A stretch of DNA of 41,860 nt, taken from a virus. Taxonomy: Duplodnaviria; Caudoviricetes. Under the pieces are notes generated by a model that saw only the letters and a list, made by a program, of their open reading frames with translations, did not search any database and was not told where the DNA came from. Each line of letters begins with the position of its first letter. Position 1 is the first letter of the stretch. The stretch is taken from IMG/VR virus record IMGVR_UViG_3300037458_000317, positions 1 through 41,860 of that record; one strand, written 5' to 3'. A program made the position numbers and the translations under genes. Below are positions 1,236 through 35,660 of this stretch, one piece after another.

Positions 1236-3545
1236 CTAAATCCTAAAAGACGTATATCTTGTGGTGATCCCACGCTTAGGATGTGAAACCTCCAGCGTTT
1301 GCAGATCGCCGACTTCCACCAGCTTTTTCACCATCTGAGAAACATCTTCTTTGGTGTACCGCTTATTGCTGGCTCGCTGCATGATGGTGGATATCGCTTC
1401 CCCGGCCTCATTCGCGCAAGCGTCTTTAATGCGACTCACTAAAACATCAGACAATGCGTCCTGTCGCTCGCTCGATTCCAGTTGGTTGCGGCGCGCCAGT
1501 TCGACTTTACTATCAATGTCTCTGCGTATCATGGCGTAAGCCCACCGGACGTGCTCAGCTGTGCGTACACGCTCTGGGCAGGCTAATATCAGCGACACCT
1601 TGGCGCATAGCTCATAACCACGGCGCACAACCGCCTCAAAGCCGCTGGTGCCTTTATGGTGCTCTGCGTACTCGTAGATCCACTTCTTCACCTGCTTTAG
1701 CATCTGCCATGCTTCATCAGTGGTGCTGATCTCAATCCGGTCTCCGTTATGCTCAAGCCGATCTGGTTTTTCGTCGGAGCAGTAACCTGGATGGTAAAGC
1801 TGCTTAAGCGTGGCTGCCATGTATGGATCGAGTTTTTGCTTTTTGAACTCGTCTTTTTCTTGCGGGTTTGTTTCGTGCTCACGAACCAACAGCGACCGAC
1901 CCACAAAACCGTTTGTCGCCTGCTCGTAGGTTATCAGCTTGTCGAATGTAACGGGCGTAGTGAAGCCAATCATGGAAAGCATTGGGTTTTTTAGTCCATC
2001 ATCCAGCGTATCGAGCTGCTCAACGAGCTTATCTGCACGCTCTTGGAATTTGCCTTCTGGATCTTCATTGTCGGCCACTTTCCCCTTGGCGTGTGACAGC
2101 TGCTTTTGTAGTTCGCTGCGGATGTCTTCTTTTAAATCGCCACTGATTAACAGGTAGCCGTTTGCCTTACCGTAGGCAGACATTAGCAGGCCGATCACGC
2201 CTTCCAGATAGGACGCACCAGACTTGGCAGAGTTGGATATTTTAGACAGCAAGATCCCAACTTCATCGACAATATAAAAAGCGCACTGGTGGCGGATCAA
2301 GTTGCGGGTGATTTCCTGCTCTGATTTTATATTGCCATGCACGGCTGCGGTGACGCCTGCGGCCCTGTGCAGGTCAATCATTGCGGTTTGAATTACTTCT
2401 TTACCCGTTGCGCTGGCTGCAATGCCGAACGTGAACATGTTGGCCGTGACGCCGTCCTTGTCATCTGTATAGCGCAACCCGCAAATGTTCCCGATGGTTT
2501 GCAGTGCTGCTGCCGTTGCCAGGTGTTCACGTGGAAATCTGCATTGCGCATTGATCCACTGCGTGACCTTGCCGACGAATCCCGGCGGCCGCAACAAGTC
2601 TACCGTATCAATGGCGAACGGGTGGCCTGTAGCGTCATCGTCTTGCTGTTGTGCTTCGGCGTGTGGAAGCTCGAACGTTACCGAACGGCGGTATCCGCCT
2701 TTTTCTGCAAGGTGGATCAGAGTCCCGATAGTGACTGGGTTCATTGTCTTTCCGAACGATTGCCAGTGCTGATCGATGGATGCGGGGCCGTTGTACTTTT
2801 CACCTCCACTGCTCCAAGCGTTCCATGTTGCCATACCTGCACCGCTGGTGGCGTGATGAATTGCCATGCCTACCTTGATCCAATCGTCATAAGAACAATC
2901 TGGATCGCAGTGTTTTAGCATATCCGCTATTTCTTGATCGGTGATGTCGAGCGATTCGCCATTCATGGCTACACGATAGTGATCTGGCTTTTTCAGGAGC
3001 TTCAGCAGTGGCTCAGGAATTGGTGTTAAGTCGCACGGATTGCCTTTCTGTTTTTCGTATGTAGCACCTGATTTATGGATAGATCCGCAACCGCACACGA
3101 ATCCTGACACTTTAAAATCTATACCTTTGTAGTCAGATAGGTGGCTCAGCAGTGAGATCGGCGGTTCGTTTTTGAAGTAGATATGCAGCCCACCGCCGCC
3201 TGTCTCTACGACAAAGTTAGACATCTCGGCGTAGTCGATTCCGGTATCTTTGCAAAGCCGTTCATACGACTCAAAACCTCCATTGCGCTTGTCGATGTCG
3301 ATTACCAGATGGTCGTCTACACAAACACCAAATCCGGTATCGAACTGACCCATCTCGTCCATCGTCTCGATCTGCTCGTCTGACCAGTGCGGGACTTGCT
3401 GCCAGTTTTGAATGCGTGGGTGTTTTCCGATAGCTGCGCACTCAGGATCGCCACAGCCGCATGACCATTGTGGAGTGATCTCCCACAGAGGGAAGATGCG
3501 GAAACCGGCTTCTAGGTAGTCATAAATATAGTTAGATGCTGACAT
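1236..3545 (-). CDS. Bifunctional Prim-Pol primase with PriCT-2 and helicase-like domain
   Basis: GKHP, VIDIDKRNGG, TGGGGLHIYF, GSIHKSG; YDDWIKVGMAIH (PriCT-2); ASATGKE and IVDEVG. Confidence 0.9.
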   Translation of the reverse strand: MSASNYIYDYLEAGFRIFPLWEITPQWSCGCGDPECAAIGKHPRIQNWQQVPHWSDEQIETMDEMGQFDTGFGVCVDDHLVIDIDKRNGGFESYERLCKDTGIDYAEMSNFVVETGGGGLHIYFKNEPPISLLSHLSDYKGIDFKVSGFVCGCGSIHKSGATYEKQKGNPCDLTPIPEPLLKLLKKPDHYRVAMNGESLDITDQEIADMLKHCDPDCSYDDWIKVGMAIHHATSGAGMATWNAWSSGGEKYNGPASIDQHWQSFGKTMNPVTIGTLIHLAEKGGYRRSVTFELPHAEAQQQDDDATGHPFAIDTVDLLRPPGFVGKVTQWINAQCRFPREHLATAAALQTIGNICGLRYTDDKDGVTANMFTFGIAASATGKEVIQTAMIDLHRAAGVTAAVHGNIKSEQEITRNLIRHQCAFYIVDEVGILLSKISNSAKSGASYLEGVIGLLMSAYGKANGYLLISGDLKEDIRSELQKQLSHAKGKVADNEDPEGKFQERADKLVEQLDTLDDGLKNPMLSMIGFTTPVTFDKLITYEQATNGFVGRSLLVREHETNPQEKDEFKKQKLDPYMAATLKQLYHPGYCSDEKPDRLEHNGDRIEISTTDEAWQMLKQVKKWIYEYAEHHKGTSGFEAVVRRGYELCAKVSLILACPERVRTAEHVRWAYAMIRRDIDSKVELARRNQLESSERQDALSDVLVSRIKDACANEAGEAISTIMQRASNKRYTKEDVSQMVKKLVEVGDLQTLEVSHPKRGITTRYTSFRI

Positions 3546-3727
3546 TACTGCGCGTCCTTGTTCTGTGACTCAAGCCATGCTGAAACTTTTTGCACTGTGC
3601 TGTATTTTGGTTCTGTACCGCCGTTCATCATGCGATACAAGGCGTTGTAATGCACTCCGCACTGCGCTGCAACAGCCTTTAGGTTCATGGGAATGAGGCG
3701 CTGTTTAATCTGCTCTAGTGTCATCAT
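3545..3727 (-). CDS. Cro-like HTH transcriptional regulator
   Basis: NLKAVAAQCGVHYNALYRMMNG..PKYSTV HTH pattern, 60 aa. Confidence 0.85.
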   Translation of the reverse strand: MMTLEQIKQRLIPMNLKAVAAQCGVHYNALYRMMNGGTEPKYSTVQKVSAWLESQNKDAQ

Positions 3728-3758
3728 TTTTTAATGTCCTGTTGTTTTTTTTGCGTTC

Positions 3759-3800
3759 GATGTTGACACTATAAAACTTGTGGCGTACATTTGCAACATC
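3759..3800. promoter_or_regulatory. Overlapping divergent sigma70 promoters flanked by an inverted repeat
   Basis: + TTGACA(3763)-17-TACATT; - TTGCAA(3796)-17-TATAGT; GATGTTG...CAACATC at the ends. Confidence 0.8.
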
Positions 3801-3825
3801 AAAACGAAACAACCGGAGCAAGCAA

Positions 3826-4503
3826 ATGGGAATAGGCGTTGTGTTGATGGGCAAAAGCGGGACTGGCAAGACCACCAGCCTGCGCAATATTAACCCTGAT
3901 AAAGCATTGCTGATCCAAGTAACCCGCAAGGCGTTACCGTTTAAATCAGCAAACTGGAAACCGTGGGACGGCAAGACAAAAACAGGAACGGTTGCGGTTA
4001 CTGACAAGGCTAACAACATCGTTGCAGCCATTCAGCGGGCAAGCGATAACGGCAAGGAAATAGTTATTGTTGATGATTTTCAGTACCTAATGGCTAACGA
4101 ATTTATGTCTCGCAGTTCTGAGCGCGGCTATGACAAGTTCACCGACATCGCCCGCCACGCTTGGGATGTTATGCAGGCTGCGATCAATGCGCCAGAGCAT
4201 ATCCGAGTTTATATCCTAACGCACACAGAGACGGATGATTACGGCCTGAACGCCAAGATCAAAACGATTGGAAAAATGCTGGATGAAAAGATCTGCCTGG
4301 AGGGTCTATTCACTATCGTTTTGAAGACCATTAAAAATGATGACGGCTATTTTTTCGCAACTCAAAATGATGGTACTGATACAGTGAAATCACCGATCGA
4401 TATGTTCAACTCAGAATTAATTGTGAACGATGTCGCAGAAATCGACCACACGATCTGCGAATATTACGGAATCAAGGAAGCAAAACAGGAGCAAGCAGAA
4501 TGA
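3826..4503 (+). CDS. Sak4-like AAA ATPase / ssDNA-annealing protein
   Basis: GKSGTGKT Walker A, IVVDDFQY, KTIGKMLDEK; GGAG RBS before ATG 3826. Confidence 0.88.
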   Translation: MGIGVVLMGKSGTGKTTSLRNINPDKALLIQVTRKALPFKSANWKPWDGKTKTGTVAVTDKANNIVAAIQRASDNGKEIVIVDDFQYLMANEFMSRSSERGYDKFTDIARHAWDVMQAAINAPEHIRVYILTHTETDDYGLNAKIKTIGKMLDEKICLEGLFTIVLKTIKNDDGYFFATQNDGTDTVKSPIDMFNSELIVNDVAEIDHTICEYYGIKEAKQEQAE

Positions 4504-4976
4504 AACTATACGAAATCACCGAACAACTACGCCAGTTGATGGCAATGGATGACGTTCCGCCAGAGCAGTTACAGGACACGCTCGACATGGTAAATGATGA
4601 GTTTGAAGCGAAAGCAGAAAACATCGCTATGTTGATCAGAGAGATGGTGCTTGATGCGGAAGGATACAAAGCAGAAATCGACCGATTATCAGATCGTAAA
4701 AAATCGATCGACAACAAAGTCGAGTCATTGAAAGATTACTTGCGCGTAAACATGCAAGCGGCTGACATGACGAAAATCAAAGGAAAGCTGTTTACTATTT
4801 CATTAGGCGCACCGACTGAAACGGTTTATGTGGCCGATGAAAAGTTATTGCCTGACAATTTGGTTTATATCAAGCGTGAACCGAACAAAACGGAAATAAA
4901 AGCGCAACTTAAATCAGGTGCCGATTTGGAAGGGTGCGCACTGGTGCAAGGTAAGGCACGGTTAACGATTAAGTAA
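4500..4976 (+). CDS. Siphovirus Gp157-family protein
   Basis: MKLYEI, EIDRL..RKK, LKDYL, PNKTEIKAQLKSG; between Sak4 and SSB. Confidence 0.85.
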   Translation: MKLYEITEQLRQLMAMDDVPPEQLQDTLDMVNDEFEAKAENIAMLIREMVLDAEGYKAEIDRLSDRKKSIDNKVESLKDYLRVNMQAADMTKIKGKLFTISLGAPTETVYVADEKLLPDNLVYIKREPNKTEIKAQLKSGADLEGCALVQGKARLTIK

Positions 4977-5027
4977 CTCTATTTTTTTTGCAAATCTACA
5001 TTAATTTTAATTTAAGGAAATAAATAA

Positions 5028-5606
5028 ATGGCCTCTTTCTGGACTAAATCAACCGGCGAAACAGTAAGCAAAACAACCGCAACTGCTGACTATCAAGCGC
5101 AAACAGACCTGCCACCAATTGCCGATAAAACAGTGGTACGAGCAGCAATCACGCAGATAAAATGGGACATGTTCACCAAGGATTCACCGGACGGGAAAAC
5201 CAAAAACGGTGAGCGTTACATTAACGCCCGCTGGGATGTTATTGACGGCGAATACGCAAAGCGCGTGATCTTCCAGAAAATCAAAGTAGGTTCAGAAGGA
5301 GAAAAGACACGCGATAACGCGCTGGATATGCTGGCTGCAATTGACATGAACGCCAGCGGCGGAAAGATGATGACGCTTGGACGTGAGCCGTCCGACATGG
5401 AGCTGATGAGTATTCTGTCTAGCAAGCCAATGCACATCCGCTTGCGTGTTTGGACTAGCCAGGATAAGACGCAATCAGGAAACTGGATCGACTCCGTATC
5501 AAGCGCAAAAGGCGGCAAGAAGCCAGCATCTAACGCATCGACTGCGCCTATCGTTGCAGAACCATCGCCAACCGTACCGGAAGAAGATGAAGAATTAGAC
5601 TTCTAG
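5028..5606 (+). CDS. Single-stranded DNA-binding protein (DUF669-like)
   Basis: WDVIDGEYAKRVIFQ; acidic C-terminus EEDEELDF. Confidence 0.8.
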   Translation: MASFWTKSTGETVSKTTATADYQAQTDLPPIADKTVVRAAITQIKWDMFTKDSPDGKTKNGERYINARWDVIDGEYAKRVIFQKIKVGSEGEKTRDNALDMLAAIDMNASGGKMMTLGREPSDMELMSILSSKPMHIRLRVWTSQDKTQSGNWIDSVSSAKGGKKPASNASTAPIVAEPSPTVPEEDEELDF

Positions 5607-5629
5607 GAAACTGAAAATACAATAATAAC

Positions 5630-5652
5630 AAAGCCCCTGTGTGGGGCTTTTT
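5630..5652 (+). terminator. Intrinsic terminator
   Basis: AAGCCCC-TGTGT-GGGGCTTTTT. Confidence 0.85.
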
Positions 5653-5667
5653 AATCGGAGTAAGCCG

Positions 5668-6495
5668 ATGGAATGCCTACGCGCAAGATGGTATGAACAC
5701 CGTAGTGTGAACGATTCAGAGCGTTTAAAGCAGATCAACGAGTTAAGCGCATGGCTTAAAAAGTACATGCTCGCGCATGTTGCTAAGTCGCATAAGATAT
5801 TCAAAGCAGGCGCTGAACTTGTTGGTTATAAGCCGATCGATGGGATAGTGAAGCATAACGACACGTTTATGTTGTTATCTGTGCAGCCGGAAGAAAAGAT
5901 AAACCACGGCGAGATATCGCGCATGATGCAGTTATCAGGCCAGCTATCCAAGCAAGGCAATGTGCTGCATGAATGCCTGTGTTTTTATCTAAAAGGCAGT
6001 GAGATCGTCAGTGAGATCGTGCCATACGATCAGTTTGCAGGGTTTCAAGAAGAAGACCATTTCAAGATAGTAGCTGGCGATGACCTGCCAGAAATTGACG
6101 CATGTAAAAATGAGTGCGCCGACTGCATCCATGCCGATCTGTGCAATGGCAACAACCTGCCTGCGGTGAATTGTGGATCATGCTGCAACGCTGGATCACC
6201 AGCCTGCGGATTATGCGCAAAAGAAAATATGCACATATTCCACCCTAATTTTTTAACAAATTCATGCTTTGAAATCGTCAATGTTGACGCCGAAAACATG
6301 GTCATTGAGTACGACAGTTTTTATTCAGTGAATAACAAGCTTCTGCGACTTAAAGACAAAAACAAGCCTTGTTTGACATCGCATGAGCTGAAATTAACAT
6401 GGGCAAATGATATGAAGCTGGACGATCCATTCATTAAGTTGATGACGCGATTCAACGGCACAATAGACAGTTTGAGCAAGGATGCAGATCAATGA
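5668..6495 (+). CDS. Divergent Cas4-like/PD-(D/E)XK exonuclease-family protein
   Basis: CxRxxWY, IDGIV, CxxCxxxxxC and VNCGSC; GGAG RBS before ATG 5668; position between SSB and helicase. Confidence 0.6.
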   Translation: MECLRARWYEHRSVNDSERLKQINELSAWLKKYMLAHVAKSHKIFKAGAELVGYKPIDGIVKHNDTFMLLSVQPEEKINHGEISRMMQLSGQLSKQGNVLHECLCFYLKGSEIVSEIVPYDQFAGFQEEDHFKIVAGDDLPEIDACKNECADCIHADLCNGNNLPAVNCGSCCNAGSPACGLCAKENMHIFHPNFLTNSCFEIVNVDAENMVIEYDSFYSVNNKLLRLKDKNKPCLTSHELKLTWANDMKLDDPFIKLMTRFNGTIDSLSKDADQ

Positions 6496-8330
6496 AGTTA
6501 ACACCTAGATGGTATCAACAGGAAGCACACGACGCGGCGATAGCGTGGGTTAGAAAGTGTTACGATCCATGTTTACTTGAATGTCCAACCGGTTCCGGTA
6601 AGTCGATCATTGTCGCCATGATAGCCAAGACGATCCATGATATGAGCGGTAAAAAAATTCTGTGCCTTGCGCCAAGCTCTGAGCTGGTCATGCAGAACCG
6701 TGAAAAATATTTACTGATGGGTGAACCTGCATCCGTATTCTCTGCGAGCGCTGGCCGAAAGGAAACAAAAAACTTTGTCGTTTTTGGATCTCCACTAACG
6801 GTTGCCAATAATTTAAACAAGTTCGGCAGCCAGTACGCTGCTGTTATCATTGATGAAGCGCATGGGCTATCACCGACATTGCTAAACATCATCAACCACA
6901 TGCGCTCGCAGAATCCGAAACTGCGCATAATCGGGTTATCAGCTACACCGTACCGCCTTAATACCGGCTACATTTATCAGCACCACTATAAAACAGGCGC
7001 ACTGACCGAAGATGAAGCTGTCGATCCTTTTTTTACGGCGCTGGTTTACACCATTGATGCACGCATGTTGATCGCAGAAGGCTATTTGAGTCAGCCGATT
7101 TTTAGCGGTAATTTAGAAAATTACGACACGAGCGGACTGACGCTAAACCGCCTAGGGCAATTTAGCAGCGATAGCGTAGATCGTGCGTTTGTCGGGCAAG
7201 GGCGCAAGACTAGCAGAATTATTGCTGATGTCGTAGATCGGTCTGCGGATAAGAAAGGAGTAATGATATTTGCGGCTACCGTGCAGCACGCAAAAGAGAT
7301 TATGGAATCGTTGCCCGTTGAGTTATCAGCGCTAGTCACTGGCGATACGAAAAAAGACGAACGGGCGCGAATAATCGATCGATTCAAAAAGCAGCAGATA
7401 AAATACATCGTCAATGTCGCCGTGCTCACAACTGGCTTTGATGCCCCGCACGTTGACCATATTGCCATCTTGCGTGCCACTGAGTCTGTGGCGTTGTTGC
7501 AGCAGATTATAGGCCGTGGATTGCGCGTTACCGACACGAAAAAAGAATGCTTGATAAGCGACTACGCACAAAACATCGAGCGCCACTGCCCACATGGTGA
7601 CGTGTTCGATCCAGATATTAAGGCGTCACGAAAACATGAATCAGCGCCGATAAACGTGCCGTGCCCTATTTGCTCCAACGTGAACGCATTTGCACTACGC
7701 AAAAATGATGATGGTTTTGAGATCGACGCCGAAGGGTTTTTCATTGATGCAGCTGGAAACAGGATCGAGACAGTAGTAGAAGGCGTGTTCATGCCAGCGC
7801 ATTACGGGCGGCGATGCCAAGGTTTCAAGGTATCGAAAGGCCATGCCGAGCAATGCAGTTATAAGTGGGCGTTTAAAACCTGTGAATCCTGCGGCCATGA
7901 AAACGACATCGCGGCGCGATATTGCGGGAAGTGTAAAGCTGAGCTTGTTGACCCAAATGAACGCCTGTTATTAGAAGCCATAAAACTAGAGAAAGATCCT
8001 TACCGTGTGCGTATGGCTAACGTGCAGATGTGGCGGTTTAAGCGTTGGCCCGGTAAAGATGGAAAGCCGGACAGCTTGCGTGTCGAGTACATGATCGACG
8101 AAAAACCATCGACACTGTTGGAGTGGTATCACCCTGAAAGCGCTAATACCTGGCTATTTAACCGCTGGCAGTCTTTCTGTGTGAAATCGTTTGGCGAGGC
8201 CTTGCCAGACTTGCAGTCTGCGCTAGATATGCAGCACGATGCAGCACAGCCAGAAAAGATCGCATTCAAGAAAAAAGCGAACAGCAAATATTTTGATATT
8301 GTCGGATTAGAATGGAGCAAAGAAGAATGA
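6492..8330 (+). CDS. SF2 (RadD/YejH-like) DNA helicase with C-terminal zinc motifs
   Basis: PTGSGKS, DEAH, SATP, LTTGFDAP, QIIGRGLR, several CxxC. Confidence 0.93.
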   Translation: MKLTPRWYQQEAHDAAIAWVRKCYDPCLLECPTGSGKSIIVAMIAKTIHDMSGKKILCLAPSSELVMQNREKYLLMGEPASVFSASAGRKETKNFVVFGSPLTVANNLNKFGSQYAAVIIDEAHGLSPTLLNIINHMRSQNPKLRIIGLSATPYRLNTGYIYQHHYKTGALTEDEAVDPFFTALVYTIDARMLIAEGYLSQPIFSGNLENYDTSGLTLNRLGQFSSDSVDRAFVGQGRKTSRIIADVVDRSADKKGVMIFAATVQHAKEIMESLPVELSALVTGDTKKDERARIIDRFKKQQIKYIVNVAVLTTGFDAPHVDHIAILRATESVALLQQIIGRGLRVTDTKKECLISDYAQNIERHCPHGDVFDPDIKASRKHESAPINVPCPICSNVNAFALRKNDDGFEIDAEGFFIDAAGNRIETVVEGVFMPAHYGRRCQGFKVSKGHAEQCSYKWAFKTCESCGHENDIAARYCGKCKAELVDPNERLLLEAIKLEKDPYRVRMANVQMWRFKRWPGKDGKPDSLRVEYMIDEKPSTLLEWYHPESANTWLFNRWQSFCVKSFGEALPDLQSALDMQHDAAQPEKIAFKKKANSKYFDIVGLEWSKEE

Positions 8331-8758
8331 AATTTCCAGATGGGTTAAAAGTTTACGGCGATCAATTATTCCGTGGCGAATGCCCAACAGAAACAAGCGA
8401 GCAGGTAGCATTTTTTGCAGAACTAAAACGAAAATATCCGCACCTGCACGCCATTGCTATCCACCCTAAAAATGAAGGGAAACGCATGAAAGGCCAGTTT
8501 CAGCAGCTGGCAAAGGATAAAGCTATGGGCCTGAATGTCGGATCTGCTGACATTATTATTCCGGCTTCACCCGCGTTTGTTTGTGAGTTGAAACGAAAAG
8601 ACCACACACAAAGCAAGTTTCAGCCTGGACAAGTTGAGTACCTTGAAAACTGCCAGAAGCTCGGAGCGTTTGTGTGTGTTGCCCTTGGTTATCAGGCGGC
8701 AATGCAGGCAATTGATTATTATTGCGATCTGCATCAAAGAAATAACCGCCAGCGCTGA
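8327..8758 (+). CDS. VRR-NUC family endonuclease
   Basis: HPKNEG, GSADIII, CELKR, QVEYL..G.FVCV; ATGA overlap with helicase. Confidence 0.88.
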   Translation: MKFPDGLKVYGDQLFRGECPTETSEQVAFFAELKRKYPHLHAIAIHPKNEGKRMKGQFQQLAKDKAMGLNVGSADIIIPASPAFVCELKRKDHTQSKFQPGQVEYLENCQKLGAFVCVALGYQAAMQAIDYYCDLHQRNNRQR

Positions 8759-8795: not shown

Positions 8796-9026
8796 ATGCG
8801 TGTTACGGCAAGGCTTGAGAATTGGTGTGTTGACAACAAATCATGGTGCCTTATAGGGGAAATATATCGAGATACCGAAAATAGAGGGTGGGCTGACGGA
8901 ACAAGAATAAAAACATCAAAAATGCAACCAATGTCCATGCAGCAATCAACGCCAAAAGAGGGGGTAGTTATTTTAACAATGAATAACTCATATCTTTTAG
9001 GAAAGAAGTTGGAGAACAATAAATGA
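8796..9026 (+). CDS. Hypothetical protein (MRVTARLENW...)
   Basis: GGAG RBS; GEIYRD...GWADGTRIKTS phage-type motif. Confidence 0.75.
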   Translation: MRVTARLENWCVDNKSWCLIGEIYRDTENRGWADGTRIKTSKMQPMSMQQSTPKEGVVILTMNNSYLLGKKLENNK

Positions 9027-9205
9027 CAAAACCATTCTAAACGGAAGACTTTAGCGACATCAAAACACAGCCAATGGAAAAGCTAATCAAGCTGAGAGAT
9101 CGCCGTAAACAGAACTGGATGGAAATGCAGAAAGCGGCTATTGAGGAATACGGTTTGCTTGATGAAGTGGAAAAGGAAATTGATCGAAGACTTGGGTTAT
9201 TATGA
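9023..9205 (+). pseudogene. 60-codon gene with in-frame TAA at codon 6
   Basis: GGAGA RBS and ATGA coupling; reads MTKPF*TEDFSDIKTQPMEKLIKLRD...RRLGLL. Confidence 0.65.
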
Positions 9206-9208
9206 TTT

Positions 9209-9253
9209 TTCGAAGCACTTATAAGTGCTTCGAAGCCTGCATAAAGGCTTCGA
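9209..9253. repeat. 26-bp perfect palindrome with overlapping 9-bp-stem hairpin
   Basis: TTCGAAGCACTTATAAGTGCTTCGAA (9209-9234); TCGAAGCCT-6-AGGCTTCGA (9230-9253). Confidence 0.9.
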
Positions 9254-9259
9254 TCACGC

Positions 9260-9285
9260 AAAAAATAGCCCTCATTGAGAGGGCT
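9260..9285 (-). terminator. Intrinsic terminator
   Basis: AGCCCTC-5-GAGGGCT followed by ATTTTTT on the minus strand. Confidence 0.8.
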
Positions 9286-9347
9286 TTAAAACAAGGAGTA
9301 AGCAAATGAAAAACAACCGGAGTGAAACAAGGAGAACAACATGAACT
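9260..9347 (-). ncRNA. Candidate ~88-nt small RNA with three anti-SD (CUCC) modules
   Basis: Own promoter and terminator, no credible ORF, 9-12 nt complementarity to many phage RBSs. Confidence 0.65.
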
Positions 9348-9353
9348 GAATTA

Positions 9354-9382
9354 ATGTTAGTCCTTGTTTTGGTTTGCGTCAA
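9354..9382 (-). promoter_or_regulatory. Sigma70 promoter immediately after the endolysin stop
   Basis: TTGACG(9382-9377)-17-TAACAT(9359-9354). Confidence 0.75.
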
Positions 9383-9832
9383 CTACAGTAAACGAGATTC
9401 AGAGATCCGGCGCTTGGTTAGGCCGGATAAAACTTTTCCGCCGCCCTTGTTCCACTTTAAAATTTCTTTCTTTGCGCCTTCCCAATCGTTAGCTAGTATC
9501 TTTTTTCTCAGCGTTGAGTTTTTCAGAGCTTTAATTCCTAGGTTAAACGCAAAGTCAGTGATAGCTCCCGCCTTTCGTCCGTCATCGATGTTTGTGCATA
9601 GTTTAATCACAGCCGGAAAGTAAACGGCTTCAAGCATCCAATCGAGCAGATCGAGTGCGCGATCTTTGGTTATCGGCGGATCTGTTAGTTGAACTCTGAC
9701 GCCATTTTCATAAACCGTAGCACCAACACCAATGGTCGCCACGCCTGCAGGGCATAGGTACGGCTTTAAATATAACCCCTCATACAGCAAGCACAAATTT
9801 CGTGCTGTCACTATCGCTGCGTTGATATCCAT
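9383..9832 (-). CDS. Endolysin, GH24 lysozyme
   Basis: YEGLYLKPYLCPAGVATIGVG, DFAFNLG, STLRKK, GLTKRR. Confidence 0.93.
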   Translation of the reverse strand: MDINAAIVTARNLCLLYEGLYLKPYLCPAGVATIGVGATVYENGVRVQLTDPPITKDRALDLLDWMLEAVYFPAVIKLCTNIDDGRKAGAITDFAFNLGIKALKNSTLRKKILANDWEGAKKEILKWNKGGGKVLSGLTKRRISESRLL

Positions 9833-10383: not shown

Positions 10384-10803
10384 TTACGCTGCAAAACACC
10401 GCATCAGTTTTAATGCCCTGGTAACTGGCGTATCCGGTATAACCAGGATGTTATTTTTAACGACTCGCACTCTTCGCTCCGCCCGTGTCGCTTTAACGCC
10501 ATTTCTCCGGATGTGAAAGCGGATGGTATCCGGAACGACGCCAAACTCTTCAGCGATATTACGTACCGCTTCCCCGTTTTTAACCCGCTGGATAGCGTCC
10601 GCTATCTGGGATTCTGATAATTTGCATGCGCCATTAACTGCACGCTCTTTAATCAGCGATCTGACGTCATCACGGCCAGTCTCACGCATTTTACGCGTGA
10701 TCGTATGACGAGATACATTATAGCGGTTTGCGATCTCTTGCAGCGTTGTGCCGGCGATGTAATCGTTAATGTCTTGCTCGGTTAAATCAACTCGTTTTTT
10801 CAT
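10384..10803 (-). CDS. Tandem HTH DNA-binding protein
   Basis: TLQEIANRYNVSRHTI and AVRNIAEEFGVVPDTI. Confidence 0.8.
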   Translation of the reverse strand: MKKRVDLTEQDINDYIAGTTLQEIANRYNVSRHTITRKMRETGRDDVRSLIKERAVNGACKLSESQIADAIQRVKNGEAVRNIAEEFGVVPDTIRFHIRRNGVKATRAERRVRVVKNNILVIPDTPVTRALKLMRCFAA

Positions 10804-10831
10804 TGTTTTACTCCTTGCTTTCAGTTTCTAA

Positions 10832-10901: not shown

Positions 10902-10933
10902 TGTCTCATTGAAACTGAAAAGGAGTAAGCAGA

Positions 10934-11248
10934 ATGAAAAAAGAATACGATGTATACGACCACGCACAGCACATTTACGAAACTCGGCTAGATGATTTTT
11001 TTAATTATCTGGCAACGCAAGCAGATCTCTATGAGTCGCTGTGGTGCATGTTTGACGATGCGAAAGAGTACAAGCACTGCCAGCAAGTTGGGGTTTTCAT
11101 CAAGCGTAACCAGTGGAAACAACATGTTTTCCGCATGTTGGATGCTGGCAATGCCCACGCCTGGTTATTGCTGACAGAGTGCGCTAAATCAGAACGCGAG
11201 TCGTCAGAGTGGGATCATGCAGCGAGTAAAGCCGATGATTTGCGTTAA
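10934..11248 (+). CDS. Hypothetical protein
   Basis: Strong AAGGAG RBS; first gene of the plus-strand cassette. Confidence 0.85.
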   Translation: MKKEYDVYDHAQHIYETRLDDFFNYLATQADLYESLWCMFDDAKEYKHCQQVGVFIKRNQWKQHVFRMLDAGNAHAWLLLTECAKSERESSEWDHAASKADDLR

Positions 11249-12274: not shown

Positions 12275-12324
12275 TACTTCATCGAAACGAAACAACAAAT
12301 CAACAAGCAAATGGAGTAAACAAA

Positions 12325-12519: not shown

Positions 12520-12570
12520 TCAACAATATACCCCGTCCGCAGAAATGCGGGCAAACAAGGAATAAACAAA

Positions 12571-12762
12571 ATGATCACTGGAAAATTAGTTGATGCAGCA
12601 GGAAAGCCACGCGACCAATTTATCACTGGTTACGCGACAATTAACGAGGCTTATCTTGCACTGCAAGAGTCTTGGCCTGCTAAGCGTCTAAGCGTTAGCA
12701 ATGCGCTGGTGTTAGCAGATCAAACCGGTTGCAGATTGATATTACAGGAGCGTAAGGCATGA
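12571..12762 (+). CDS. Hypothetical protein
   Basis: AAGGA RBS; coupled to next gene. Confidence 0.78.
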   Translation: MITGKLVDAAGKPRDQFITGYATINEAYLALQESWPAKRLSVSNALVLADQTGCRLILQERKA

Positions 12763-24172: not shown

Positions 24173-24670
24173 ATGAATGATTTAGTATCAGTTAGTAATG
24201 GTAAGGTTGTTGTGACGTCAAAGCAAGTGGCGGATGCTTTCGGGAAGATCCACCGGCATATCCTGCGCGACATTCGAGATCTAATATCTGAATCTGGAGA
24301 GTTTGGACAGTCCAGTTTTGGGCTGTCGTCATATAAGTCATTGCAAAACAAAGAGTTGCCTTGTTACGAAATGACACGAGACGGGTTCTCACTTCTAACG
24401 ATGGGCTTTACTGGTAAGCAAGCCATTGAATGGAAAATAAAATACATCAACGCCTTTAATAAAATGGAAGCAGAGACCCTATCTAACCGAACGAAAGAGA
24501 TCTCAGTCATGGACGAGCTTAACAAGGCTTATTTATTGATGGAGTCAGACAAAGAGAAAGCGAGTGTTTTCGGTAGTGGATTAAATGAGTGGAAGCAAAT
24601 ACGAAAAGAGCACATGGAAAGAGTGAATAAACTACAGGAAGACGTGCAAATGTTGCTGAACTTCAAGTAA
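24173..24670 (+). CDS. rha: Rha-family phage regulatory protein
   Basis: TSKQVADAFGKIHRHILRDI, MTRDGFSLLTMGFTGKQA, YINAFNKME. Confidence 0.92.
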   Translation: MNDLVSVSNGKVVVTSKQVADAFGKIHRHILRDIRDLISESGEFGQSSFGLSSYKSLQNKELPCYEMTRDGFSLLTMGFTGKQAIEWKIKYINAFNKMEAETLSNRTKEISVMDELNKAYLLMESDKEKASVFGSGLNEWKQIRKEHMERVNKLQEDVQMLLNFK

Positions 24671-27198: not shown

Positions 27199-29496
27199 TT
27201 ATGCATCATCTGAACCCCACTCTGAAACCGGATACGAGGCGGAACGAAAGCCAACATTGTCGAACGAGTTGGTCCGTGCGTCGGCACAATTGGAGGCCCA
27301 CACCCCGGCATTCGAACCGAGGTTCCAGGTCGCGCCAGAGCGCAAGCAAAGTTCATTGCGGATGTATTGGTAAAAATAATCCTGACCAAACAGATTGCTG
27401 CCGGACGTGGACATCCCAGCTGCAATCGGAATACCCAGTGAGCGTAAGACTGCGTTATTGCCAGTTAAGTCCGGACTCAGCGCCTGATTGGCGCTGTTAC
27501 CCAGTTTTTGTGCAAAGCCGTTACTGGAGTAGGTTGTAGCAAATGCAGGCGTAAACGCATCCATATTGGCAGCCACACCGACACTGCCGAAATGGTCAGT
27601 GGATAAGCTATTGCCGCCGGTGAAGTTAGCCATCTGCGCTGACTCTTTAGCGACATAGAATGTACCGTAAGTTGCTGAGCCGCCAGATGTATAGGCGGTA
27701 AATGCGGTACCATCGACACCATTGAGCGTGATGGTGTTGGCATCAACTACGGTCGCAATGTAAATCTTGTCGTTGAGTTGCGTCATACCCGCAATGCTGG
27801 TAATCAACACCTCTTTACCTGTGGTCATACCGTGCGCGGTAATGGTCAACGCAACTGGGTTGGTTTGTGTCGCAGCGGTGATGGTTTTACTGGTTGCAAT
27901 ACAGGTGACGCCCTGCGAGACTTCCCACATCAGTCCGTTCAGGTCCGCGATGCCGCACGCCTGCCCGTTGTGCGTGGTTTTCGAAAATGGCACGCCTGAG
28001 CCTGTTTTGCCACAGTTGCTGTATCCATCTGAGGTGTAAGTTACGGCAGTGTCGTTGGTGTCTTTTAGTGCATTGTTGTTGCAGCCTTTGGGGAAATTAC
28101 TGACCCCTGTTGCGTCATACCATGCACAGTTGGTTGTTGCTGTTGCCGCCTGTCCATGTGCTAATGACAGAAGGGCAAGAGCAGCATAGATAAAGCGGGA
28201 TGCGACGAAGAAATTCGCACCACGGGTTTTTGCCGCCTGCCAGCATCCGCCGTACGTATTTGATGGCGCGCCAGTCAGCTCGGAAATCGGATTATGGTTT
28301 GCGGCGGTTGAAAGTGGATTGCCGTTTTTAATGGATGACGCGATACCACCATTATTGCTGCACATGTACTTATCTATAAACAGCACTGGTTTATGTTGGT
28401 TTCCATCAATAAACATGCGGTTTATTGCATATCCAGCTGCATTTGCAATTGCTTCTGATGCAAAGTAATTTCTAGGTTTGATATCAACTGAGTTGACTCC
28501 ATACTGTGCATAAGTCGGGTTATCAATATGTCCATAGCGCTCCCAGAATTGCGGAATGCAGACCTGAACAGAGCCATCAGAATATTGATAGTTGCCGTAA
28601 TTGTCATCTCCAGTTAACTCTGTATAACCAGATGGCGCGCGTGACACACGACCAACACCAAAAAATGCTTCGCCAGGTACGCCGATGGAATCAACAGCAG
28701 TGATAGGGTCGTAAATCGGCACGTTAACTTTTCTGCCCAGATATTTCTCACACTGCTGCCGTTGTGTATCATTTAAAGCAGACTTGACAACGATCAACCC
28801 AAACAAGTTCATCTTCATAAACATGCTGTTTGTTGTGCTGATCGAAGCCCCTATCGTCGTGTTGTTTAACGTCAACGATCCTGATCGCGTGTAATTATCA
28901 TAACCAGACAACACACCTTCTTTATAGATGTTGATGTTTTGCCCGTTATCGATGATTGATCTAACGGTTTTAGTGCGCAGCCCAGATGTTGTGCCGTTTG
29001 TATCTTTTACTGTCGTGCCAGCATCATTAATAATCAAAGCATCGATCCCATCGCTCGCCACTCTGCGCGATGGGATGTACTGCTGCGTTGCGACAGTGCT
29101 ATTGCGCTCTGAGATCAAAGCAGCGTTTGTTGTTTGATTCTGTGAATCAATAGCGGCGACGATTGAGCAGGCGCCACCGGCGTAAAGACCAAGATATGGA
29201 ATATTTAGGTAGTCATCAATGCCATCAAATGACAGCGCGTATAAGCCGTTGATTTGCACAAGAGTAGGGCGAGCCGCAGTGATTGGCTGCGTAGCGTGGT
29301 TGCCGTTTCCCGAAATATCTAAAACCTTACCGACCGGTTGGCCGGCGGCAGTGACTGGGATCGTGCCTGCTGCGTCTTGGTAGAGCGTTGATAGGTCTTG
29401 GATGTTATAAATAAGACCGTTATTTGCAGCTACTATCGATCTCGCTGATGCGCGATTATTAAACGGGGCCTGTTCGAGATTATAAAATCTGCTCAT
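27199..29496 (-). CDS. Multidomain fibre-like protein: LamG/ConA-like domain plus Mtd/FGE-type C-type lectin domain with an inserted beta domain
   Basis: DISGNGNHATQ, FDGIDDYL; IDKYMCS, GIADLNGLMWE, SGATWNLGSNAGVW...NVGFRSA. Confidence 0.85.
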   Translation of the reverse strand: MSRFYNLEQAPFNNRASARSIVAANNGLIYNIQDLSTLYQDAAGTIPVTAAGQPVGKVLDISGNGNHATQPITAARPTLVQINGLYALSFDGIDDYLNIPYLGLYAGGACSIVAAIDSQNQTTNAALISERNSTVATQQYIPSRRVASDGIDALIINDAGTTVKDTNGTTSGLRTKTVRSIIDNGQNINIYKEGVLSGYDNYTRSGSLTLNNTTIGASISTTNSMFMKMNLFGLIVVKSALNDTQRQQCEKYLGRKVNVPIYDPITAVDSIGVPGEAFFGVGRVSRAPSGYTELTGDDNYGNYQYSDGSVQVCIPQFWERYGHIDNPTYAQYGVNSVDIKPRNYFASEAIANAAGYAINRMFIDGNQHKPVLFIDKYMCSNNGGIASSIKNGNPLSTAANHNPISELTGAPSNTYGGCWQAAKTRGANFFVASRFIYAALALLSLAHGQAATATTNCAWYDATGVSNFPKGCNNNALKDTNDTAVTYTSDGYSNCGKTGSGVPFSKTTHNGQACGIADLNGLMWEVSQGVTCIATSKTITAATQTNPVALTITAHGMTTGKEVLITSIAGMTQLNDKIYIATVVDANTITLNGVDGTAFTAYTSGGSATYGTFYVAKESAQMANFTGGNSLSTDHFGSVGVAANMDAFTPAFATTYSSNGFAQKLGNSANQALSPDLTGNNAVLRSLGIPIAAGMSTSGSNLFGQDYFYQYIRNELCLRSGATWNLGSNAGVWASNCADARTNSFDNVGFRSASYPVSEWGSDDA

Positions 29497-34160: not shown

Positions 34161-34507
34161 TTGTTCTGCTCCGGCGAGGACGGTAACTCAAACCAAGAAA
34201 CAAAATTCTGCGGCCACCTTCTGATAACATAGTCTTGAACTATTGTTTTCTTGCCTTGCCCGTCATAATTCCCGCCTTCGTATTTTTTAAGGCAAGTAGC
34301 AGCTACCTGGTATGGTTTGCTGTGTTCTTCCGGCAACCGATCACTAACCGGAATCCATTCCGGCACAGTCTGCGCTTTGGTGGCTTTCTGCAACCTTTCG
34401 ATTATTTTTGATTGTTGGTGCGCCATGTCTGCCAAGGTTTCTTTTTCAAAACCAAGAAGCCAGTTTATTTTTTTCTGGTCGGCGTTTAACTCTTCTCGCT
34501 GTGTCAT
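34157..34507 (-). CDS. DUF551-like protein
   Basis: EWIPVSDRLPE...W.ELP..P; AAGGAG RBS before ATG 34507. Confidence 0.78.
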   Translation of the reverse strand: MTQREELNADQKKINWLLGFEKETLADMAHQQSKIIERLQKATKAQTVPEWIPVSDRLPEEHSKPYQVAATCLKKYEGGNYDGQGKKTIVQDYVIRRWPQNFVSWFELPSSPEQNK

Positions 34508-34511
34508 TGTC

Positions 34512-35030
34512 TTACTCCTTAACCGGCACAGGAAGTTCGCCGGATAGTAGTGCGTCATAGATACTGGTTAGTGTGCTGGTGTATTCAAGGTTTTTTAAAG
34601 TTTTAGCGGCTTTAGCACACCACTCTTCCCGCAACCGCGCCGCTTTTTCTTCTGGTGCTTCGATTGGTTTGCATTCATCAATATCAAAACCGCAATAACT
34701 ATCTCCAACTACCGCAAGAATGGTGTTGTTAAGAATTCGGACACACTCCCACACATAACCTCTCGCTTTAAACTCAGCTCCAACCTCCGGCAACCGCCCA
34801 GCTTCCTGGTCTTCCACTGTCCAGCGCTTAGGCTCTGCGATGATGCGGCGCATGGCCACTATAACAGTACCATCTGGTATTTTACCTCTAGCGCTAAGTT
34901 CCGACAGTTCATCCAGAGTTACAAAGTTTTGGCCCAACAAGTCATGCCACAGCCTCACCTCAACAAACTTGTTAAGTTGATCCTTAAACTTATCTTGATC
35001 TCCGAGTAACGCTTCATATTTAATTTCCAT
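34512..35030 (-). CDS. Hypothetical protein
   Basis: AAGGAG RBS; WT..DQ.AGRLPEVG motif. Confidence 0.82.
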   Translation of the reverse strand: MEIKYEALLGDQDKFKDQLNKFVEVRLWHDLLGQNFVTLDELSELSARGKIPDGTVIVAMRRIIAEPKRWTVEDQEAGRLPEVGAEFKARGYVWECVRILNNTILAVVGDSYCGFDIDECKPIEAPEEKAARLREEWCAKAAKTLKNLEYTSTLTSIYDALLSGELPVPVKE

Positions 35031-35108
35031 TTTGCTTCTCCTTGTTTATCATTTTCTTGACGTCAGGAATATGCTCTCACAAATTCACTGGTTAAAAGTT
35101 TATTTCTG

Positions 35109-35413: not shown

Positions 35414-35614
35414 TTATCTTTCTTGCCATTTATCAAATCCGTGCTTAACTGCAACCTGCTCGTATCCGTAATCAGTTAGCTCAGCGACCTCTAATTTACC
35501 GCCAGCGGCAATACCAAATTCTTTTGTTGCCAGCGCTTTTGCGCCACTTAATGTTTTAGCGTTAGTTTTCTGCCAGTGACTGCTTGTGTTACTGCCGATG
35601 TAGAATGCTTTCAT
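35414..35614 (-). CDS. Hypothetical protein
   Basis: GGAG RBS; first gene after the promoter at 35661-35689. Confidence 0.8.
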   Translation of the reverse strand: MKAFYIGSNTSSHWQKTNAKTLSGAKALATKEFGIAAGGKLEVAELTDYGYEQVAVKHGFDKWQER

Positions 35615-35660
35615 TTTATTTGCTCCGGTTGTTTATTTGCTGCCTTGTTTGTATGTGTTA

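Follow-up and report, generated by a model that had tools for sequence, protein, structure and literature searches.

A conserved minus-strand cassette of a tailed phage is predicted to encode a small RNA complementary to ribosome-binding sites of the phage's own early genes

Positions 9260-9382 of the virus record IMGVR_UViG_3300037458_000317 hold, on the minus strand, a compact, conserved cassette that is very likely a non-coding RNA gene, with a small RNA (sRNA) likely made from its own sigma70-type promoter. Comparison of the cassette with phage gene starts suggests that this sRNA probably, though by no means certainly, acts in trans to mask the ribosome-binding sites (RBSs) of the phage's own early genes. 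The window, meaning the entire 41,860-nt stretch analyzed here, is the whole virus record, with an estimated completeness of 93%. Its gene set (61 proteins scanned) is that of a tailed phage and includes a primase, Sak4, a Gam-like protein, SSB, a helicase, head and tail genes, and an endolysin. No integrase was found among these 61 proteins or in the scanned part of the relative G001, the best capsid match is 40% identical, and no cultured phage record gave a DNA match to the cassette region. Two other features of the window were recorded along the way. A Rha-like gene (24173-24670, plus strand) is inverted within the tail operon and has a strong sigma70-like promoter (11/12) and an RBS without a match to the element. 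A 765-aa probable virion protein (27199-29496, minus strand) gives patchy PHROG matches, has a GGAG-type RBS, and is absent from G001 by tblastn.

The original prediction described a minus-strand promoter of the form TTGACG-17-TAACAT, an RNA of about 88 nt, a terminal hairpin, and a run of six uridines, and all of these lie where it placed them. The −35 hexamer TTGACG (9377-9382) is directly 3' of the stop codon of the endolysin gene (9383-9832, minus strand) and is found in 21 of 21 copies of the cassette. It is followed by a 17-nt promoter spacer (9360-9376), which contains AAAACAAGGA (9370-9361), a stretch complementary to the anti-RBS modules of the cassette body, and by the −10 hexamer TAACAT (9354-9359), in which variation among relatives is confined to positions 3-4. 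The predicted RNA is 88 nt long, with a predicted start at 9347. Its variable 5' part (9311-9347) carries two anti-RBS modules that are the complements of AAACAAGGAGAA and AAACAACCGGAG. The conserved 3' seed (9289-9310), of which 18 nt are invariant (n = 21), is complementary to the consensus start region of the early genes (RBS, spacer, and start codon) and is predicted to be unpaired. An intrinsic-terminator-like hairpin and U tract (9260-9285) complete the cassette, with an invariant 7-bp stem (9285-9267), a variable loop, and six uridines (9265-9260). In the window, the cassette lies between the endolysin gene and a convergent small gene.

The body of the cassette is rich in pyrimidines (U 55%, C 22%, G 15%) and folds less than its own shuffles (z = +1.62), with a predicted unpaired probability of 0.83-0.94 for the seed across all alleles. 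Promoter and terminator consensus matches taken alone are not above chance in the window (6 versus 6.3 and 5 versus 4.4 in shuffles); the presence in the cassette of a promoter and an intrinsic terminator with a U tail is judged by sequence and conservation alone. The RNA-labelled data comprised four runs as assembled contigs only, and one metatranscriptome contig (9268-9384) covers the element; assembled contigs do not show strand or ends, and this one includes the promoter and so is silent on a short RNA. Two adjoining hairpins with the common arm TCGAAG, one of them a perfect palindrome, are found at 9209-9252, between the plus-strand gene and the terminator, and such hairpins were not seen downstream of the relatives' cassettes.

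Twenty-one distinct copies of the cassette, including that of the window, were gathered by an endolysin search, a pattern of core plus terminator, and a promoter-only pattern. Pattern matches in which the rest of the cassette was absent were dropped by eye as chance matches (2 of 10 and 10 of 16 for core plus terminator; 2 of 8 for promoter only). A profile search of 104 further phage loci gave no new copy. The 21 copies come from close relatives and are not independent events. Homology starts exactly at the −35 hexamer whatever the upstream gene, which is the endolysin in 4 copies and another gene in the remaining 17 (a 57-aa gene in 14 and a third gene in 3). The carriers encode three unrelated replication modules: primase/Sak4 in the window, RecET with O-like, DnaC-like, and DnaB-like proteins in G001, and a DNA polymerase module in L019. 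L037, L019, and the window (1236-8758), with their similar tail and portal genes, likewise have three unrelated replication-recombination modules.

Conservation within the cassette is uneven. The −10 hexamer occurs as TAACAT in 15 copies, TACGAT in 2, TACCAT in 2, TAAGAT in 1, and TACTAT in 1, so that T-A-x-x-A-T is always kept. The 5' part occurs as three types, represented by 17, 3, and 1 copies, and contains short duplications, and the 18-nt core adjoining the terminator is identical in 21/21 copies. Most searches used the core, yet all nine copies from the promoter-only pattern keep it, so its invariance is not just a matter of ascertainment. No compensatory change was found in the terminator stem across copies, and no open reading frame is conserved on either strand among 20 alleles. 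An invariant core and stem, combined with a changing loop, 5' part, and neighbors and with no kept frame, fit a selected non-coding element rather than a scar. The complete phage G023, whose Sak4 is 67% identical, has no cassette homologue and no analogous peak of complementarity (best window 5/73 starts); G018, G019, and G024 are fragments, and the comparison with complete phages is the one with G023.

The RBS complements listed in the original prediction are each present at the place and length it gave. Matches of 12 nt occur at 3807, 35623-35634, 35036-35047, and 10920, the last with 9 nt more across one extra base; matches of 10 nt occur at 34511 and 10808, and of 9 nt at 5657, 9011, and 39236. 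A further 12-nt match, at 1090, falls outside the called gene starts. The predicted targets on the plus strand are the gene of the Sak4-like annealing protein (ATG 3826; 3807-3828), which is the first gene behind a sigma70-like promoter, and a 104-aa gene (ATG 10934; 10920-10941). Those on the minus strand are an HTH DNA-binding protein (ATG 10803; 10796-10817), with a match of 9-13 nt in 6/6 distinct relative starts, a 172-aa gene (ATG 35030; 35028-35047), with at least 9 nt in 5/5 distinct relative starts, a 66-aa gene (ATG 35614; 35612-35634), and a 116-aa gene (ATG 34507; 34505-34520). Predicted weaker targets, both on the plus strand, are a 275-aa gene of the replication cluster (ATG 5668; 5657-5670) and a 63-aa gene (ATG 12571; 12553-12573) with 10-14 nt in 4/6 distinct relative starts. 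The complementarity covers the Shine-Dalgarno (SD) sequence and spacer and often the start codon as well. Several of the top targets are directly behind sigma70-like sites, and the targets are called early because of their gene family and these upstream sites.

Two observations concern the start regions themselves. The match at 9011 precedes a 60-codon gene (9023-9205, plus strand) that is conserved in relatives; codon 6 is an in-frame TAA here and GAA in 4/4 relatives checked, and the gene is either broken or restarts at a later ATG. A similar ATCGAAAC/ATTGAAAC/ATCAAAAC motif directly after their own −10 site opens several predicted early leaders (3790-3825, 10905-10933, and 12290-12324).

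The matches are concentrated at one class of gene starts. Fifty-two starts were curated, with genes of no known function counted as non-structural and ten ORFs with uncertain starts, including terminase and HNH, left out. Of the 33 non-structural starts, 11 have a perfect complementary run of at least 9 nt, as against none of the 19 structural starts (Fisher p = 0.004); at two of the 11 (3727 and 12325), the run is beside the SD sequence and not on it. A comparison with shuffled controls bears out the enrichment: none of the shuffles in three sets of 400 reaches the observed 11 of 52 starts (maxima of 7, 8, and 10), although two of the sets keep the anti-SD cores fixed. GGAG is present at 21/33 non-structural versus 3/19 structural starts, and its absence from the capsid, scaffold, tail tube, and chaperone genes agrees with the earlier claim that these use different RBSs. 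In relatives, 21/82 non-structural versus 2/70 structural orthologous starts carry a match to the one majority allele chosen as representative. A sliding-window scan ranks the element first both in the window (11/49 starts versus 6 for the next best) and in G001 (8/53 versus 6). The unrelated recombinases Sak4 of the window and RecT of G001 both have a 12-nt match at their starts.

Several results do not favor targeting of the phage's own genes. The variable 5' part shows no co-variation with the RBSs of each phage (p = 0.67), although such co-variation in related phages had been suggested as a check; the core is uninformative in this respect because it is invariant. Among 188 starts from the majority allele's own phages, the variable part of that allele reaches at least 9 nt at 4, fewer than that of the window allele on the same set (22). 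Allele-specific co-variation had looked promising on Sak4 starts from contigs not linked to a cassette and was rejected when it failed across all starts. Even a single typical early RBS, taken in antisense, finds matches at 6-7 other starts, so the enrichment is partly a matter of RBS similarity among early genes. A run of at least 9 nt is absent from 22/33 non-structural starts, including those of SSB, the helicase, Rha, and the primase, and the structural Ad1 start is predicted to pair well with the core (−22.7 kcal/mol). The claim of an sRNA gene directed at the non-structural RBS class is supported by conservation, the lack of an ORF, class enrichment, and the genome-wide scan, and is not supported by co-variation of the variable modules.

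The mechanism that we favor can be outlined as follows. The sRNA would be transcribed from the start of infection and build up, as in the case of T4 RegB. Once accumulated, it would pair with the SD-to-start region and block translation of a subset of early genes, thereby limiting early expression to a pulse. Late genes, having GAGG, GGGG, or AGGU-type sites, would be spared, and most structural genes would stay free. Transcription, repression, and their timing are what we infer from this arrangement, as is assistance by Hfq, which the host genus encodes (3/3 Tolumonas-genus genomes, with two Hfq-family matches in each). In a fuller model, which we put forward tentatively, a single RNA repressor reading the class barcode of early-gene RBSs might run the lytic early-to-late switch, with a promoter that doubles as an anti-seed muting a read-through form.

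The host of the window phage is likely Tolumonas, an assignment made because of CRISPR spacers and Tolumonas-titled MAGs that contain the element. Of seven element matches in genome collections, four come from MAGs with the title Tolumonas sp. The single-contig genome G009, from the Tolumonas genus, has 91 CRISPR spacers, and 9 of them match the window when up to 5 mismatches are allowed; a CC flank accompanies 7 of the 9 matches, and reversed spacers give none. Several other spacers of this array (G009:C1:1497986-1501559, L072), which we take to be of type I-F, match relatives of the window phage. On this spacer record, the G009 lineage is a host lineage repeatedly attacked by the window-phage group. 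Three MAG contigs labelled Sunxiuqinia also carry the cassette and are probably misbinned phage contigs. Tolumonas-genus genomes (L075-L081) were also seen to encode CsrB, and two of five have a second, weaker CsrB-like RNA a few kilobases away.

The sRNA could instead act mainly on host RNAs such as metQ, glpK, and the CsrB repeats, or titrate Hfq, with the matches to the phage's own genes a by-product of shared strong RBSs. Consistent with this possibility, a 13-nt match between the core and the metQ start is present in 8/11 genus genomes, and one of 14 nt between the 5' module of the window allele and the glpK start in 3/11. The variable part of the majority allele has nine 7-mer matches in host CsrB, a number reached by 53 of 5000 shuffles, and its UCAUCCU module is a 7-9-nt complement of the CsrB repeat. 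However, the window allele has no 7-nt match in 5/5 full CsrB copies, and the core has none in the one copy tested. Scoring covered about 0.82 Mb of the 3.47-Mb host genome, in which 689 starts were called; a run of 9 nt was reached at 22 of these and one of 12 nt at just 2, as compared to 4 of 71 phage starts at 12 nt with the same caller. The difference holds when only GGAG-type RBSs are considered (9/24 phage versus 11/214 host starts with at least 9 nt; p = 2e-5), and predicted pairing of the core is stronger at the phage's non-structural starts than at host starts (p = 5e-8). The host mRNA matches foreseen in the original prediction thus exist and are few, and the body is U/C-rich rather than G/U-rich like the seed to which it had been likened. 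A mainly host-directed role is possible but unlikely.

The same pairing could serve another purpose, either exclusion of superinfecting related phages or a quiet carrier state, rather than the phage's own lytic timing. Under the masking model, a related phage arriving later would be hit by this RNA as well. Exclusion would be in keeping with the pairing of the window allele's variable part with relatives' starts (22/188 at 9 nt or more) and with the absent allele-specific co-variation, which fits broad, group-wide targets, and exclusion by RNA has precedent in accounts of STnc6030 and c4 (PMC12197685). However, a lytic carrier of the RNA must itself express the same RBS class, and the lack of an integrase among the genes scanned in the window and, in part, in G001 also speaks against this alternative. 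We consider either purpose rather improbable as the main one.

The promoter spacer, similar in sequence to an early RBS, shows complementarity to the cassette body, which raises the question of what becomes of a longer transcript. In the masking model, read-through from the lysis genes would include the transcribed spacer, which would fold over part of the body, and this long form would perhaps be less active. The UCC motifs have a predicted unpaired probability of 0.84 in the short RNA, which drops to 0.57 in the long form and is 0.72 when the spacer is shuffled. In 17/21 alleles, the native long form is more stable than its spacer-shuffled controls, of which no more than 2 of 30 equal it. 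Spacer-body folding counts as one observation and not 21 because the alleles are related. The pairing may mute the read-through RNA, serve as a late-processing substrate, or be left over from an origin by inverted duplication. It could also mean that the cassette is the structured 3' UTR and terminator of the lysis transcript, with the apparent promoter being the 5' arm of a hairpin and the trans-acting RNA absent or late-processed, as might be expected from homology that begins right at the upstream stop codon. However, variation of the −10 hexamer is confined to tolerant positions, the L020 and L227 alleles weaken the spacer arm and still keep the core, and mirroring of early RBSs is not something that a plain 3' UTR requires. 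These data make a purely 3' UTR role quite doubtful.

Still poorer is the fit of a recombination scar, of leftover plus-strand RBS cassettes, or of a plus-strand GGA-rich decoy for CsrA or ribosomes. The plus strand does read as an RBS and ATG with several GGA motifs, and the ease with which a single antisense RBS matches 6-7 other starts is compatible with collapsed RBS modules. Against these readings, the core is invariant while the loop, the 5' part, and both neighbors change, which disfavors the scar offered as an alternative in the original prediction. On the plus strand, the ORF varies in length between 5 and 47 codons, and L020 has lost its ATG. The element also does not resemble a CsrB/RsmZ-type CsrA sponge: the GGA motifs of its plus strand are in a region without folding, no promoter or terminator bounding it on that strand was found by the scan, the U tract belongs to the minus strand, and there is no Rfam match. 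We regard this group of explanations as very improbable. A small hydrophobic peptide or an endolysin stop read-through tail, suggested by an endolysin frame that in the window stays open for 36 codons past the stop and has a hydrophobic end, is hardly credible and was rejected, as no frame is kept across 20 alleles (11 to 100 codons, shifted, with 16/20 having a different upstream gene in another frame).

Masking of the phage's own early RBSs by a trans-acting sRNA is the reading that we compare with known systems. Rfam gave no match at gathering score in the window and six sub-threshold matches around the element (E 1.3-9.2). A phage sRNA repressing its own early genes as a class was not found described in the open literature searched, a body that leaves most subscription papers outside it. 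GcvB and RsaE are bacterial multi-target anti-SD sRNAs. Another is 6C (PMC6486639). The predicted RNA resembles all three in presenting single-stranded, pyrimidine-rich seeds to SD or C/A-rich elements shared by many mRNAs; in contrast, those RNAs are chromosomal and aimed at host regulons, and the element has no Rfam match to any of them, including the GcvB model.

Among RNAs of phages and satellites, the c4 antisense RNA of P1 and P7 pairs near a phage-mRNA RBS, blocks translation, and has an immunity role between related phages (PMC12197685; PMC8198154). The cassette would likewise provide a phage RNA with predicted pairing near phage RBSs. However, c4 is structured, acts on one operon (icd-ant), belongs to temperate phages, and has an Rfam family, whereas the predicted cassette RNA is open and has many dispersed predicted targets. 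The Rfam C4 covariance model does not match the element, whose neighbors are an endolysin and a convergent small gene rather than icd-ant. SviR of the PLE satellite is a trans-acting, multi-target sRNA that pairs through separate seeds near phage start regions (10.1101/2022.04.08.487710), as is predicted here, but SviR is encoded by a satellite, and its targets are another virus and satellite transcripts rather than, as proposed here, an early gene class of the encoding phage. A 2024 review describes the role of non-coding RNA in lytic phages as still to be elucidated (PMC10884466).

A functional parallel to class-wide control is found in T4, in which the RegB endoribonuclease and the RegA repressor inactivate a class of early mRNAs through a GGAG-containing, A-rich initiation region and late mRNAs escape (PMC3014915). 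Both cases would involve one phage factor, an early class read by GGAG-type start regions, and late escape; RegB and RegA are proteins that cut or bind RNA, whereas the cassette encodes no protein and would act by base pairing. Closest among published arrangements are the start-associated sequences (SAS) of Cluster K mycobacteriophages, an extended RBS signature found only at non-structural genes as a near-exact 13-bp repeat (PMC3203893). In four genomes, one copy of SAS has the opposite orientation and is not tied to a gene start, and that report leaves open whether an RNA or a protein binds it (PMC3203893). The cassette phage has both features, an extended non-structural RBS signature and one reversed copy. 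It differs in that the sequences are unrelated, the signature is looser, and the reversed copy is in a promoter-to-terminator cassette with several modules; for SAS, an element of actinobacterial phages, no RNA gene is known to have been described (PMC3203893). If the masking model is true, a class-wide repressor reading an RBS barcode would add a new level to temporal control and offer a compact means of silencing the translation of one gene class. It would also provide a testable explanation for start-associated sequences, including the reversed SAS copy of Cluster K, unexplained since 2011, and because the likely host genus is identified, reporter tests are feasible without isolating the phage.
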